Origin: a virus
IMG/VR virus record: IMGVR_UViG_3300045988_092115
Span: 1 to 44,266 of that record
Reading direction: 5' to 3' (one strand)
Length of the DNA: 44,266 nt
Below, piece after piece: positions 11,482 to 14,451 of the stretch. The notes below the pieces were generated by a model. It made no database searches. It saw nothing but the letters and a program-made list of their open reading frames with translations, and had not been told where the DNA came from. The translations under genes were made by a program, and so were the position numbers. How positions within the stretch are numbered: position 1 is the first letter of the stretch; every line of letters starts with the position of its first letter.

Positions 11482-11691
11482 ATGAAATCACACAGTCAAT
11501 CCGGCCAGATGAATAAACTGGCAATACGCACGCCGGGAATTTCACCCGCTTTTAACCTCCGGGATAAACCCGTTTATATTAAGGGCGTGCGCGGGAGGTG
11601 TAAATTGGCTAGAAAGATTCACAGGAGGTTAATCTTTGCTGCACTTATAATGTATCATTTATCCGTATGTAAGCTATCCACACGTTTATAA
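11482..11691 (+). CDS. Possible small basic protein on the opposite strand
   Basis: 69-aa ORF preceded by AAAGGAGG plus a 6-nt spacer and ATG. It is very basic with a hydrophobic C-terminus. It converges on and overlaps the end of 11686..12237. No promoter was identified. Confidence 0.3.
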   Translation: MKSHSQSGQMNKLAIRTPGISPAFNLRDKPVYIKGVRGRCKLARKIHRRLIFAALIMYHLSVCKLSTRL

Positions 11692-12237
11692 CATATCTCT
11701 AAGTTTATCAACATACCGCTTCACAAGGTCACGTTCTTCGCGGCACTCCGCGTCCTTTGACATGTCCCCAATCTCAGCGGTCAACCCATCCAGATGCTCT
11801 TCCAGTGCGGCAAGCATCTTCCTCTTGCAGTCTTCAGATTTGCCGGAACGATAGCTTTGCTTCTGTGTCATGTAATCATCGTAAGCATCCCGTCCATCAT
11901 TGCGGCTGTAATGCCCTCGCACGTAATGTTCGCCTCGGCGCATGTAAGAAGATCCGCGGTCATAGTCCGGCATCATTCGGCCATCAGAAGAACTGTAACG
12001 GCCCATGCTGTCTCGTCCACGGCGTTCACTGTAATCACCTACACCGTCACGCATCTGATCCAGCACGGTCATATAATACTCGCCCTTTTTATCCCAGTAC
12101 TCTGTGTTTTTTATATCCTTATACATATCAATCAACTTAAAGGCGGTGTCCAGATTGCCAGAGGTGAGGCCTTTTTCTGCGATATTGGATATTTCATCTT
12201 CAATTCGTGCGCACAGATCTTTAATATCTCTCATCAT
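11686..12237 (-). CDS. Hypothetical Arg/Asp/Tyr-rich protein (cassette gene 6)
   Basis: 183 aa with helical ends and a low-complexity RG/SY/DY-rich centre (SERRGRDSMGRYSSSDGRMMPDYDRGSSYMRRGEHYVRGHYSRNDGRDAYDDY). Confidence 0.7.
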   Translation of the reverse strand: MMRDIKDLCARIEDEISNIAEKGLTSGNLDTAFKLIDMYKDIKNTEYWDKKGEYYMTVLDQMRDGVGDYSERRGRDSMGRYSSSDGRMMPDYDRGSSYMRRGEHYVRGHYSRNDGRDAYDDYMTQKQSYRSGKSEDCKRKMLAALEEHLDGLTAEIGDMSKDAECREERDLVKRYVDKLRDML

Positions 12238-12246
12238 CCCACCTCC

Positions 12247-12669
12247 TTATGCTACCCGTGTTACCACAAGATTTGCGTTTGCTACGGTTATAGCCTGCGT
12301 GCTGGTGTTCTCCACTGCAATATTTGAGCAGCACCCACGCGGTACATCAATAAAGATACCTGCGGATACGTTGTTAAACGCTTCCACCACCGCAGGAGTG
12401 GATATCATCTGAGATGATAAGACCGGTTCGCCGCCGATCGCGATTGCAAGGGAGATTGCTTCTGCTGTCCCTCCGGTCGGAACGGCAATATTTGCAGAAA
12501 AGGCCACAAAATAGCGGGCCTTACACTGGTTCGTCATTCCTCTGAGAGTAACTATTCCGCTTCCCTCCCGGTGCTGAACACATGCGGTCCCTTTTACCGC
12601 TGTGTTGGTATATACTACATTTCCATTCGCTGCCACATCCTGAGCGGCAACAGCTACATATTCAGCCAT
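12247..12669 (-). CDS. BclA C-terminal-domain-like (C1q/TNF-like jelly-roll) protein (cassette gene 5)
   Basis: Start moved to the ATG at 12669, which is preceded by AAAGGAGAA. The pattern ...YFVAFSANIAVPTGGTAEAISLAIAIGGEPVLSS...IFIDVPRGCCSNIAVENTS..ITVANANLVVTRVA resembles exosporium BclA C-terminal domains, recognised by eye. Confidence 0.55.
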   Translation of the reverse strand: MAEYVAVAAQDVAANGNVVYTNTAVKGTACVQHREGSGIVTLRGMTNQCKARYFVAFSANIAVPTGGTAEAISLAIAIGGEPVLSSQMISTPAVVEAFNNVSAGIFIDVPRGCCSNIAVENTSTQAITVANANLVVTRVA

Positions 12670-12801
12670 ATTGTTTTCTCCTTTTTCATATCGCAAAAAG
12701 GCAGGACTGAGCCTGCCGATTTGCGTAATACCGGCTCTGGGCCGAACATCCAATGTCTTGTTGAGGTCAACAAAACATCAGAAGATACAGATATGAGGTT
12801 G

Positions 12802-13572
12802 TCAGCAGTTGCAACCAGTGTTACAGCCATAGTATACGTTCGGGTTCGGCACCTGGTAAGCCGGAATCGGTGCCGGATTGATCGCATTAATGAGCTGCTG
12901 GGTCTGTGCTGCCATAGCGGTAGTAAGCAATGCACTCTGGCGATCCTGAGATGCAGCACGTCTGAGATCATTGTTTTCAGCCTGGAGGGAAGAAATCTTC
13001 TCGTTGCACAGGTAGTCCAGAATAGCTCTGGTTCCTGCGTTCTGGCTGTCAATAATGTCTCTGGTGTTGCTGTTCATGGTGTTCTGGAGTGCACAGGTGT
13101 TCTGCGCCATGTTGTAATTTACGCCCTGGATTGCTTCCCGGGTCTCGCAGCAACACTGAGCAAGCTGCGCCTGGAGTGCATTGGTGTTCTGCATGTTGGC
13201 TACAGTGTCGGCGTTAATAGCCTGCTGGATGCCGAAACCAGTCTGCATGACGTTTGTATTGATGCCGTTGAATCCGGTAAGCATACCGTTATTCATGGCA
13301 TAGAAGCCATCACACAGGCCGCTGGACAGGCCGTCCAGTTTGCTGATAACCGCCTGGTTGTCAAACCCGCGCTGGATCGCAGAATCGGTGTATGCGCTTC
13401 CGGCTGCTCCACCTCCGCCGTTTCCCCAGCCATTGCCACCCCATCCGCAGAAAGCGAAAATGAATAAAACGATGAGCCACCAGACACCGTCTCCGCCAAA
13501 CATTCCATCATTGTTCCGGTTGTTGGTTCCTGTAGCCGCCGCAATATCGGCTAAGCTGTAAGTTCCATCCAT
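12802..13572 (-). CDS. Membrane-anchored Gly/Gln/Asn/Cys-rich protein with YjcZ-like N-terminus (cassette gene 4)
   Basis: 256 aa. The N-terminal GGDGVWWLIVLFIFAFCGWGGNGWGNGGGG resembles tiny YjcZ-type sporulation proteins. Q/N-rich helices follow, with a CCC and other Cys residues. The C-terminus is YYGCNTGCNC. Confidence 0.65.
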   Translation of the reverse strand: MDGTYSLADIAAATGTNNRNNDGMFGGDGVWWLIVLFIFAFCGWGGNGWGNGGGGAAGSAYTDSAIQRGFDNQAVISKLDGLSSGLCDGFYAMNNGMLTGFNGINTNVMQTGFGIQQAINADTVANMQNTNALQAQLAQCCCETREAIQGVNYNMAQNTCALQNTMNSNTRDIIDSQNAGTRAILDYLCNEKISSLQAENNDLRRAASQDRQSALLTTAMAAQTQQLINAINPAPIPAYQVPNPNVYYGCNTGCNC

Positions 13573-13619
13573 ATTGATATCTCCTTTGATTTATTTACAT
13601 TCCCGGCCGGGATAATGTA

Positions 13620-13844
13620 CTATTTCATGCCGCCCAGCATCCGTTGAAACTGCTGTGCCATCTGCTGAGCCTGGTTAAGCTGCGCCTGTGATATTCTACC
13701 AGACTGCAACATCTTTTGTACCTCGGCTTTGGGATCTCCTTTAAAGTTTTGCTTAAACTGCGCAAACTGCTGCATCATCTGCATGGGGCCGTTGCCGCCC
13801 ATCGGCATGCCACCGCCGAACATTTGAAATAATGGGTTACTCAT
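13620..13844 (-). CDS. Small Met/Gln-rich protein (cassette gene 3)
   Basis: Start moved to the ATG at 13844, which overlaps the upstream stop (gATGAGTAA). Sequence: MSNPLFQMFGGGMPMGGNGPMQMMQQFAQFKQNF... Confidence 0.6.
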   Translation of the reverse strand: MSNPLFQMFGGGMPMGGNGPMQMMQQFAQFKQNFKGDPKAEVQKMLQSGRISQAQLNQAQQMAQQFQRMLGGMK

Positions 13845-14304
13845 CTGCTGCCGCACCTCCCTTTGGTCTCCGGCTCTCTGGTTTGGCAGTAGAGCCGCCA
13901 CTTGCTGGAAATGAATTTATCTTGTCCAGAATCTCATTGTATTTGTCAAAAAGGTCCTGGTACTCTTTACGGGTAACATACATATCATTCATGGCAGCTT
14001 CCGGCTGCTTCTGTGGCATTCTGCCGTTTATTTCGTGGTACTCAAACACGCGTAAAGGTTGCGGCATGCCGGATACATCCGTTGACTTGATGTAAAACCG
14101 CTCCGCTTCGCTGTCCATCAGCAATACGCATGATCCGGGTGCAACAAGGTAAGACTTCGCCCCAGTCTCGCCCTGCACCCAGAGTATTCCCTGGTTATTT
14201 GTCGGCGCTGCCATCGGCTGCGGGACGGGCTGGTATTGGTTTATCTGCGCCATACGGTCTTGATACGGCTGGTATGGCTGATACATGTTCGGATATGCTG
14301 CCAT
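13837..14304 (-). CDS. Gln/Pro/Tyr-rich N-terminus plus small beta-rich domain protein (cassette gene 2)
   Basis: 155 aa with a GGAGGAAATCGAAC-ATG ribosome-binding site. The N-terminal MAAYPNMYQPYQPYQDRMAQINQYQPVPQP is compositionally reminiscent of GerQ-type coat proteins. Confidence 0.7.
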   Translation of the reverse strand: MAAYPNMYQPYQPYQDRMAQINQYQPVPQPMAAPTNNQGILWVQGETGAKSYLVAPGSCVLLMDSEAERFYIKSTDVSGMPQPLRVFEYHEINGRMPQKQPEAAMNDMYVTRKEYQDLFDKYNEILDKINSFPASGGSTAKPESRRPKGGAAADE

Positions 14305-14404
14305 GTTCGATTTCCTCCAATTCTTCCAAAAAGATCAAAATATCGTGGTAATCGGTTTTTATAGGTATCTCTATCTCATAGTCATCGGAAAACATCTGCT
14401 CCAT
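14195..14404 (-). CDS. Doubtful acidic ORF at the head of the cassette
   Basis: 69 aa with no Shine-Dalgarno sequence. It overlaps the next gene by 110 nt. The region may instead hold the cassette promoter. Confidence 0.25.
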   Translation of the reverse strand: MEQMFSDDYEIEIPIKTDYHDILIFLEELEEIEHGSISEHVSAIPAVSRPYGADKPIPARPAADGSADK

Positions 14405-14418
14405 GCTTATATTTTGGC

Positions 14419-14451
14419 ATAAAAAATAAGCCCCTGACAGTTCGTCAAAGG
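14419..14451 (-). terminator. Intrinsic terminator after the sigma-like gene (minus strand)
   Basis: On the minus strand, CCTTTGAC-gaact-GTCAGGGG forms 8 pairs including two G-U. It is followed by CTTATTTTTTAT. Confidence 0.55.

Follow-up and report, generated by a model that had tools for sequence, protein, structure and literature searches.

A portable accessory gene cassette in siphophages of Firmicutes and its possible link to tail fibres

Why should a phage carry, among the genes that build its head, a run of genes whose products do not look like parts of a virion? The question is raised by the virus record IMGVR_UViG_3300045988_092115 of IMG/VR, of which we analysed positions 1 to 44,266, the whole stretch of 44,266 nucleotides that is called the window here. 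Between its minor-head and scaffold genes lies a cassette of small genes that an original prediction, made from the letters alone, had read as a terminator-bounded moron acting on the spore or cell surface of a sporulating host. Comparison of about 100 phage and prophage loci showed that the cassette is real, widespread and, as far as we found, undescribed as a unit: the original prediction had not recognised such a module as described, and our literature searches likewise gave no description of it. What the cassette makes can be read in several ways, among which we tentatively prefer a fibre- or adhesin-like assembly at a membrane.

A cassette of five genes in many phages

All genes of the cassette region lie on the minus strand. 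The cassette itself comprises g155 (13837–14304; 155 residues; PHROG 21718, E = 6.5e-39), g74 (13620–13844; 74 residues; PHROG 22984, E = 5e-25), g256 (12802–13572; 256 residues; PHROG 16490, E = 5e-55), g140 (12247–12669; 140 residues) and g183 (11686–12237; 183 residues; PHROG 28802, E = 3e-66). Because each of the five products matches a PHROG family, all of unknown function (E = 5e-25 to 3e-66), the five genes are real and have been seen in phages before. The starts of g155, g74 and g140 were supported by Shine-Dalgarno sites and by the N termini of homologues; the ribosome-binding site of g155 is a GGAGG 8 nt upstream. Five odd, co-directional genes between a terminator and downstream hairpins were thus present as predicted, and composition counts bore out their unusual make-up (Q/P/Y-rich, M/Q-rich, Cys-rich and R/D/Y-rich). 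The sixth open reading frame (ORF) that had been counted with them (14195–14404) was rejected: it lacks a ribosome-binding site, shares 110 nt with g155 and gave no match to any family. This leaves five solid genes. Direct scans of the five proteins against Pfam, NCBIfam and PADLOC gave nothing significant.

Protein searches of phage collections found relatives in contigs from human faeces, in phages from lemur and rodent guts and in the cultured Butyrivibrio phage Ceridwen. A scan for the g256 motif in one genome per bacterial species gave 136 confirmed hits, from which 80 loci were kept, and all ORFs of 99 loci were searched iteratively. As contig ends cut many of these loci, the counts of the components are lower bounds. 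g256 was present in 98 of the 99 loci (by construction), g155 in 88 and a g74-type protein, either g74 or the variant g74b, in the same slot in ∼92. g140 was found in 57 loci, an unrelated Cys-rich protein of ∼130 residues took its slot in 38, and at least 56 had a g183-type protein. Two further genes join the cassette in part of the loci. The first, sig74 (14465–14689 in the window), encodes a 74-residue protein with a helix-turn-helix (HTH) of the sigma-70 region-4 type and is the usual first gene; its homologues occurred in 63 loci, nearly always just upstream of the cassette, so the sigma-like gene does go with the cassette, as had been suggested. The second, g127 (15048–15431; PHROG 3754, E = 6e-38), encodes a protein with a Cys-His-Asp pattern and is an optional member that was found in 43 loci, where it precedes g155 or follows the final gene of the cassette.

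The order of these genes was invariant: g127 (optional), sig74 (optional), g155, g74, g256, g140 or its alternative, a g183-type gene and, where it stands at this end, g127. This fixed order held in ∼100 phage and prophage loci, including the cultured Ceridwen and Clostridium perfringens XP41-N3. Composition alone may account for some of the grouping in the low-complexity families of g74 and g183; the constant place of their members argues for the assignments.

In contrast to this fixed internal order, the place of the cassette in the genome varied. In the window and at least 14 other loci it lies between the minor-head and scaffold genes. In Ceridwen, Dulem virus 33, bajarodcaudo virus 5 and others it follows the lysis genes and precedes a reversed integrase gene, or it stands at the end of the late genes. 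In a Lachnospira phage family of ∼58 kb and in Dulem virus 39 it comes right after the integrase gene or at the prophage-host junction, and in Dulem virus 36 it directly follows the gene of the receptor-binding protein. Its neighbours were minor capsid, scaffold, integrase, recombinase or lysin genes, or host genes at a prophage border. Among the loci surveyed no cassette was seen in a clearly non-phage setting, so the idea that homologous cassettes might occur in chromosomes outside prophages found no example. One prophage remnant, beside four tandem tRNA-Glu genes and rplT, begins in the middle of a g256 homologue, and its cassette is truncated at the prophage border (L006 8986–9370 and 9598–9876; L numbers denote loci of our set). 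Among 109 flanking ORFs that were scanned as the nearest large neighbours of cassettes, four encoded AgrB-family proteins.

Phages with related heads can do without the cassette. Dorea phage DO134P1 and Flavonifractor phage Chenonceau, whose capsid proteins are 51–58% identical, lack it and have other small, unrelated genes in the slot between the minor-head and scaffold genes. As phages with a homologous capsid lack it, the cassette is accessory and not part of core head assembly; judged from gene content, it is dispensable for this head type. Its at least three genome positions and its absence from phages with homologous heads agree with the discrete accessory unit of the original prediction. 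We conclude that the cassette moves horizontally between phages of Firmicutes and is a widespread accessory operon of siphophages.

The hosts of these phages include spore formers, such as Enterocloster and C. perfringens, the latter with the cassette-bearing phages XP41-N3, vB_CpeS-17DYC and phiCP13O. They also include Butyrivibrio fibrisolvens, the host of Ceridwen, a phage that carries the cassette, has no integrase and has been seen to grow only lytically; to our knowledge this Butyrivibrio host does not sporulate. Further cassette contigs were binned to metagenome-assembled genomes of Erysipelotrichaceae, low-GC Bacilli (GC, guanine plus cytosine) and Mycoplasmatota, assignments that are uncertain. 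Bins of Prevotella, Muribaculaceae and Collinsella, which would place hosts outside Firmicutes, were treated as unreliable because the loci in question have a low GC content and Shine-Dalgarno sites.

The hallmark protein, the exchangeable slot and their partners

g256 is the hallmark protein of the cassette. It contains ten Cys residues, with a CCC triplet at positions 140–142, and has the C-terminal sequence GCNTGCNC. Composition analysis found a sole strongly hydrophobic stretch, at residues 24–42. The protein combines a Gly- and Trp-flanked hydrophobic helix (residues ∼30–43), Q/N-rich helices, a PxPIPAY motif and a C-terminal CxC, and the CCC of its CCC(E/D)T motif was invariant in alignments. 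The family is large, with 3,104 clusters (50% identity) at E ≤ 1e-3 and 1,737 at E ≤ 1e-10, and the best 150 clusters are all stand-alone proteins of 140–325 residues. The N terminus had been likened to YjcZ-type sporulation proteins; as g256 matched neither YjcZ nor tiny_TM_bacill of NCBIfam at E ≤ 1, this resemblance is compositional only. PADLOC returned for g256 only a weak coiled-coil match to the tail of ZorA (E = 1e-3), and single-sequence searches of the PDB with g256, g140 and g127 gave nothing.

A diverged relative of g256, from Dulem virus 36, led to the cultured C. perfringens phages with the cassette, and the same query also matched a stretch of sequence that many enterobacterial phages carry. 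In Escherichia phage KurtStettler (Seuratvirus) this region belongs to bas22_0024, a protein of 510 residues encoded just after the lateral-tail-fibre gene (L104 2840–4372) and annotated as ‘putative lateral tail fiber chaperone’. Over its N-terminal half, the protein matches the long tail fibres of T4 and S16. There follows a segment beginning SDRDLK, which we take to be the start of a self-cleaving intramolecular-chaperone (S74-type) domain, and after it come a hydrophobic segment rich in Gly and Trp, helices rich in Q and N that contain CCCETN, a Pro-rich stretch and terminal Cys residues. The last ∼200 residues of bas22_0024 are homologous to g256 (BLASTP, 8e-11; jackhmmer, 3e-19), and hhalign of g256 against bas22_0024 gave 98.3% at E = 1e-14. 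The region was present in 222 phage records of Salmonella, Escherichia, Yersinia and others, and the T5-like phage SuperGirl has decayed remnants of it directly after the lateral-tail-fibre gene (L105 3447–3726). Overall, the g256 family reaches phages of E. coli, Salmonella, Yersinia and Campylobacter. These homologues at enterobacterial fibre loci indicate that the hallmark domain is not specific to phages of spore formers and is tied to fibre loci.

g140 had been proposed to have the sequence pattern of the C-terminal (C1q/TNF-like) domain of BclA, and at the level of the domain family this was right, as judged by fold, profile and the Pfam matches of its relatives. An AlphaFold model from 36 sequences was all-beta, with a predicted local distance difference test score (pLDDT) of ∼77 for residues 40–140. 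Foldseek against the PDB matched this model to TNF ligands, C1q, chlamydial Pgp3 and B. anthracis BxpB. All 30 matches at E ≤ 1e-3 were TNF ligands, C1q-family domains, Pgp3 or BxpB; B. cereus ExsFA and the C-terminal domain of F-BclA followed at E ∼1.2–1.5e-3, and the fold matches as a whole had E values of ∼3e-4 to 1.5e-3 and TM-scores of ∼0.5–0.6. When a profile of 47 g140 relatives was searched against the PDB, the C-terminal domain of F-BclA came first and five BclA C-terminal-domain sequences came next, these six best matches having E values of 0.04–0.4. The Pfam model BclA_C (PF18573) was matched by 18 of the 47 relatives (best E = 8.3e-9), whereas g140 of the window itself gave no match to it at E ≤ 1. 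We conclude that g140 is a divergent jelly roll of the BclA_C/TNF type, whose copy in the window has diverged too far to score. It consists of the domain only, with no collagen-like GXY repeats and no exosporium-targeting N terminus.

The unrelated protein that fills the slot of g140 in 38 loci is, like g140, rich in beta structure. It has an N-terminal CxxC-type motif and a conserved KYCI..AQ.IP motif (examples are L009 7905–8324, L017 7813–8196, L018 7659–8063 and L103 6721–7098), matched no Pfam family and gave nothing usable in a PDB profile search. That it might be a diverged g140 was rejected by hhalign (probability 0.3). The TNF-like fold forms the trimeric distal knob of fibres, for example in BclA and in P5 of PRD1, and the swapping of proteins in one slot is a pattern of receptor-binding tips.

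Signal peptides and membrane segments are absent from four of the five cassette products. All partners of g256 are without signal peptides, and three of them are prion-like or RG/Y-rich. The N-terminal 40 residues of g155 contain 8 Q, 7 P and 5 Y, and the protein has a conserved small beta-rich core and a C-terminal helix. It had no relative in Pfam and a PDB profile search gave nothing usable; the proposed likeness to GerQ failed, with no Pfam match of g155 to Spore_GerQ and none among 63 relatives at E ≤ 0.05. g74 consists of 22% Q, 15% M and 14% G. g183 has helical ends and an R/D/Y/G/S-rich centre, with 13 R, 11 D and 9 Y in residues 60–130, and its slot is variable, as other loci hold there either a g183-type protein or R/D/Y-rich proteins with Pfam DUF7841.

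Of the two additional proteins, g127 has invariant D19, C20, R23 and H100 and a nearly invariant D111 among 41 relatives, a Cys-His-Asp set that may be papain-like. Relatives in Tsamsa-like Bacillus phages are annotated ‘putative peptidase’, and in Bacillus, Geobacillus and Lak phages g127 is also found where there is no cassette. A PDB profile search with g127 gave nothing usable and a Pfam scan of the 41 relatives no peptidase family; kinship with the C39-like lysin of bajarodcaudo virus 5 was discarded, as there is no similarity. The description of sig74 as a sigma region-4-like regulator stands as a weak call: it matches PHROG 1190, ‘RNA polymerase sigma factor’, at E = 8e-4, but its scores for Pfam Sigma70_r4 and Sigma70_r4_2 (11.6–13.3 bits) stay below the cut-offs (24.1–25.7).

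Hairpins, promoters and the flanking region

The hairpins at both borders of the cassette were confirmed by folding. T1 (14419–14455, minus strand), the predicted intrinsic terminator between sig74 and g155, has a stem of 12–13 bp at 14427–14455 followed by U6 (-17.1 kcal/mol, z = -4.4). On the downstream side, the hairpin at 11379–11416 is followed by U5 (-11.8 kcal/mol, z = -2.7), and the one at 11328–11360, whose stem pairs an A-tract with a U-tract, has -23.1 kcal/mol (z = -7.5). An additional hairpin, T2 (12695–12717, minus strand), lies inside the cassette between g256 and g140; it consists of GGCAGG-loop-CCTGCC (12700–12717) and U5 (-10.7 kcal/mol, z = -2.6) and resembles a terminator or attenuator.

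With a terminator-like hairpin defined as a stem of at least 6 bp plus a T-run, the spacer after g256 contained one in 69 of 93 loci, compared with 45 of 400 random 265-nt windows (11%). Against the same random windows, 39 of 88 loci had such a hairpin in the 260 nt ahead of g155, and 20 of 59 had one in the 200 nt that follow the last cassette gene. Bordering hairpins of the kind predicted for the window therefore recur in other loci. The stems at the position of T2 vary in sequence among lineages. As T2 lies ∼30 nt ahead of the start of g140, there is no room for a promoter before that gene. This arrangement suggests that T2 may be an attenuator that keeps g155, g74 and g256 high relative to g140 and g183.

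No minus-strand sigma-70 promoter-like site was found in the window upstream of g155 (14304–14427), and across 80 non-redundant loci the highest promoter scores ahead of g155 did not exceed those of shuffles. We had also considered a conserved promoter motif of a non-canonical kind, but the k-mers enriched in this region reflected only the T-runs of terminators and the ribosome-binding site, apart from a weak AATAAAAT signal. In every locus where the adjacent phage genes were identified, the cassette was co-oriented with them. Since no sigma-70 promoter of its own precedes it, the cassette is not a textbook moron: the terminators and the presence or absence among related phages agree with that term, whereas the missing promoter and the shared orientation do not. 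The pattern is consistent with transcription by read-through, or with a promoter dependent on a phage factor, for which sig74 would be the obvious candidate.

The ∼510 nt of non-coding DNA between g183 and the scaffold gene (10543–11175, minus strand) hold two features that the original prediction had missed. Outside the cassette, at 11525–11593 on the minus strand, lies a RAGATH-21-like RNA (RF03097) that scores 69.3 bits over the full length of the model, just under the gathering score of 70.3 (E = 2.7e-13). The motif recurred in loci L007, L010, L011, L046 and L048, each time after the last cassette gene (g183) and ahead of the scaffold gene, and nowhere else. It lies shortly before terminator-like hairpins and before the genes for scaffold and capsid, which are highly expressed (major capsid gene of the window, 9293–10462, minus strand). 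A plus-strand ORF at 11482–11691 with a good ribosome-binding site was rejected as a gene, because the overlapping RNA explains its conservation. The second feature is a tRNA-Met(CAT) (11254–11326, minus strand; ARAGORN and Rfam, 72 bits), 2 nt before which the hairpin at 11328–11360 stops. In related phages this tRNA slot directly upstream of the scaffold gene holds Met-CAT, Tyr-GTA or Ile-TAT (L010 2576–2649, L011 8323–8414, L012 8786–8859 and L015 2669–2742). From the tRNA to the scaffold start runs a leader of ∼78 nt (11176–11253, minus strand) that is near-identical in four phages with differing tRNAs; it contains a CCTGC-GGCG-GCAGG hairpin, and its folding energy is ordinary (z = -0.2).

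On the other side of the cassette, the gene of a 113-residue protein with an N-terminal hydrophobic helix (14686–15027) lies between sig74 and g127, and the minor head protein gene (15431–16552; Phage_min_cap2, E = 4e-68) lies beyond g127, both on the minus strand. An ORF for 604 residues at 16739–18553 (minus strand), with a GC content of 0.31 at 17001–18000 compared with ∼0.47 around it and no match in Pfam or PHROG, looks like another recent insertion into the head-gene region. Between the genes for the portal and the minor head protein, at 18623–19444 (minus strand), a protein is encoded that carries choline-binding repeats and an endolysin-like domain (Pfam ELLD, E = 1.5e-70), and it is unusual to find a lysin-type gene in such a position. 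Near the integrase region, a skipping-rope RNA (RF02924) at 39762–39842 (minus strand) scored 52 bits, above its gathering score.

What the cassette may make

Four observations, the knob fold of g140, the swapping in its slot, the homology of g256 to a part of fibre loci and the attenuator-like T2, lead us to favour, as a tentative reading, that the cassette encodes an optional, late-made, membrane-anchored fibre- or adhesin-like assembly or the platform on which one is assembled. The place of the cassette right behind the receptor-binding-protein gene in Dulem virus 36 also speaks for this reading. In such a scheme the operon would be transcribed on the phage’s own programme, by read-through or from a promoter dependent on the small HTH protein, and would not be a constitutively expressed lysogenic-conversion gene. 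g155, g74 and g256, the latter as a membrane-anchored, Cys-rich coiled coil, would be made in excess, and transcripts passing T2 would yield smaller amounts of g183 and of g140 as a trimeric knob. g256 might anchor or nucleate a membrane appendage that carries the knob, or provide a platform for one, and the exchangeable slot, filled by g140 or the alternative beta protein, would supply the ligand-binding tip.

Several points weigh against this scheme. A role of the products in the virion is one that we infer only. The cassette proteins are short and of low complexity and have no fibrous repeats, and a virion part would not usually have a membrane-type hydrophobic helix such as that of g256. 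The AlphaFold prediction for g256 (94-sequence alignment; pLDDT 47, predicted template-modelling score 0.17) was unreliable and showed only the hydrophobic helix at ∼30–43 and a long C-terminal helix, and the ‘chaperone’ label of bas22_0024 is an annotator’s guess. In addition, one large group of phages carries the cassette next to the integrase gene or at the border of the prophage, well away from the structural genes, a site typical of lysogenic-conversion or exclusion genes.

This site points to superinfection exclusion, which we regard as unlikely but the most serious of the alternatives: a prophage-made complex at the host membrane, in which g256 as the membrane protein and its soluble partners would alter the envelope or block the entry of DNA from competing phages. 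Many loci adjoin the attachment site, whether after the integrase gene, between lysis genes and a reversed integrase gene or at the prophage-host junction, and the single strongly hydrophobic helix of g256 would suit a membrane complex. The exclusion genes cor and llp adjoin tail-fibre or receptor-binding genes in enterobacterial siphophages, and it is at such loci that the g256-like region occurs. However, a sigma-70 promoter is missing, the only match in PADLOC is the weak coiled-coil one, and four of the five products have neither a signal peptide nor a membrane segment. The cassette is also present in the lytically growing Ceridwen, and its five to seven genes far exceed what known exclusion systems need.

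An undescribed phage system, present in many phages, is about as doubtful as exclusion, in our view. Here the CCCET protein would be a membrane-anchored coiled coil that nucleates a cross-linked coat- or appendage-like assembly in infected or lysogenic cells, with the exchangeable BclA-like trimer at its tip, and the same anchor domain would have been reused behind the self-cleaving chaperone of enterobacterial lateral tail fibres.

Somewhat less probable still is a purely intracellular assembly, attached to the membrane during lytic growth as a condensate, a scaffold or a device for lysis and egress, with no role on the particle or the cell surface. The partners without signal peptides, three of them prion-like or RG/Y-rich, would be at home inside the cell, and the cassette often neighbours lysis genes. 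The Cys-His-Asp protein found in 43 loci, if an enzyme, could process or cross-link proteins, and the poor model of g256 is consistent with an obligate oligomer or with disorder. This alternative has no direct support, though, and it leaves both the link to tail-fibre loci and the exchangeable slot for beta proteins unexplained.

A module expressed in the sporulating mother cell, where it would add to or alter coat or exosporium-like layers, comes closest to the original prediction and is improbable on our evidence. It draws on the membership of g140 in the BclA_C family and the match of its fold to BxpB and ExsFA, and on the Cys-, Q- and R/Y-rich low-complexity proteins, which recall coat proteins; assembly in the mother cell needs no secretion signals, and some of the hosts form spores. 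The small HTH protein sig74 also has what we take to be the size and HTH type of GerE. Moreover, phage sigma factors have already been reported to alter sporulation (PMC2716549). Against a spore-specific role stand the enterobacterial and Campylobacter phages with members of the g256 family, the cassettes of the Butyrivibrio fibrisolvens phage and, with the uncertainty of their bins, those of Erysipelotrichaceae, Bacilli and Mycoplasmatota. Neither GerQ nor YjcZ found support, and in 38 loci an unrelated protein replaces g140. Because of the enterobacterial g256 homologues and the cassette-bearing Butyrivibrio phages in particular, we consider a role specific to spores unlikely; given the missing signal peptides and the Cys-rich, BclA-like content, some link to spores is possible but unlikely.

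Finally, that the products are essential head-morphogenesis or capsid-decoration proteins, as the position between minor-head and scaffold genes in the window and at least 14 other loci might suggest, is very improbable, since phages with homologous capsid, scaffold and minor-head proteins lack the cassette, phages with related capsids carry it after their lysis genes, and the slot holds unrelated small genes in other phages.

Whichever reading holds, scattered ‘hypothetical proteins’ become one portable operon with conserved internal regulation, and five PHROG families, DUF7841 and a stray BclA_C clade become a single testable object. The hallmark family has more than 1,700 clusters (50% identity) and occurs in prophages of many abundant human-gut Firmicutes, Lachnospira, Dorea, Enterocloster, Ruminococcus and Faecousia among them, as well as in cultured phages of Butyrivibrio and C. 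perfringens. The fibre extension joins an otherwise unexplained feature in phages of two host groups, and the Seuratviruses of the BASEL collection are genetically tractable models for the g256-like extension. If the products change the adsorption of particles or the surface of the host, the cassette would matter for host range and for colonisation in the gut; should the CCCET system exist as outlined above, it would be a new kind of phage-made machinery for surface or fibre assembly, with no characterised member so far.

Compared with known systems, the cassette combines familiar elements in a different arrangement. The morons of HK97 and HK022 are defined by a promoter, one or a few genes and a terminator placed between conserved genes. 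Like these, the cassette lies between conserved head genes, is variably present and is flanked by terminators; unlike them, it has no sigma-70 promoter that we could find, comprises five to seven genes with an internal attenuator-like hairpin and possibly brings its own regulator. In Bacillus anthracis lysogens, phage-encoded sigma factors alter both sporulation and surface phenotypes (Schuch and Fischetti 2009, PMC2716549). Those phages share with the cassette a sigma-related regulator and a proposed link to spores or surfaces, but they encode a full sigma factor, whereas the cassette has only a 74-residue region-4-like fragment, and its host range argues against a spore-specific role.

With BclA_C (PF18573), BxpB and ExsFA of the B. 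cereus group, g140 shares the predicted TNF/C1q-like jelly-roll fold. Relatives of g140 match the Pfam model, although the window copy reaches no Pfam score, and like BxpB and ExsFA g140 is a stand-alone domain of ∼140–170 residues. In contrast to the BclA glycoprotein, it has neither collagen-like repeats nor the N terminus that targets the exosporium, and in contrast to all of these proteins it is encoded by phages, some of whose hosts are not known to sporulate. The closest parallel to the hallmark protein is the extension of bas22_0024, which shares with g256 the Gly/Trp-flanked hydrophobic segment, the Q/N-rich CCCET helices, the Pro-rich stretch and the terminal Cys residues. There this sequence is joined to the end of a tail-fibre-like part that has a chaperone-type motif, at a locus without the partner genes, whereas g256 is a free protein of 256 residues with four conserved partner genes.

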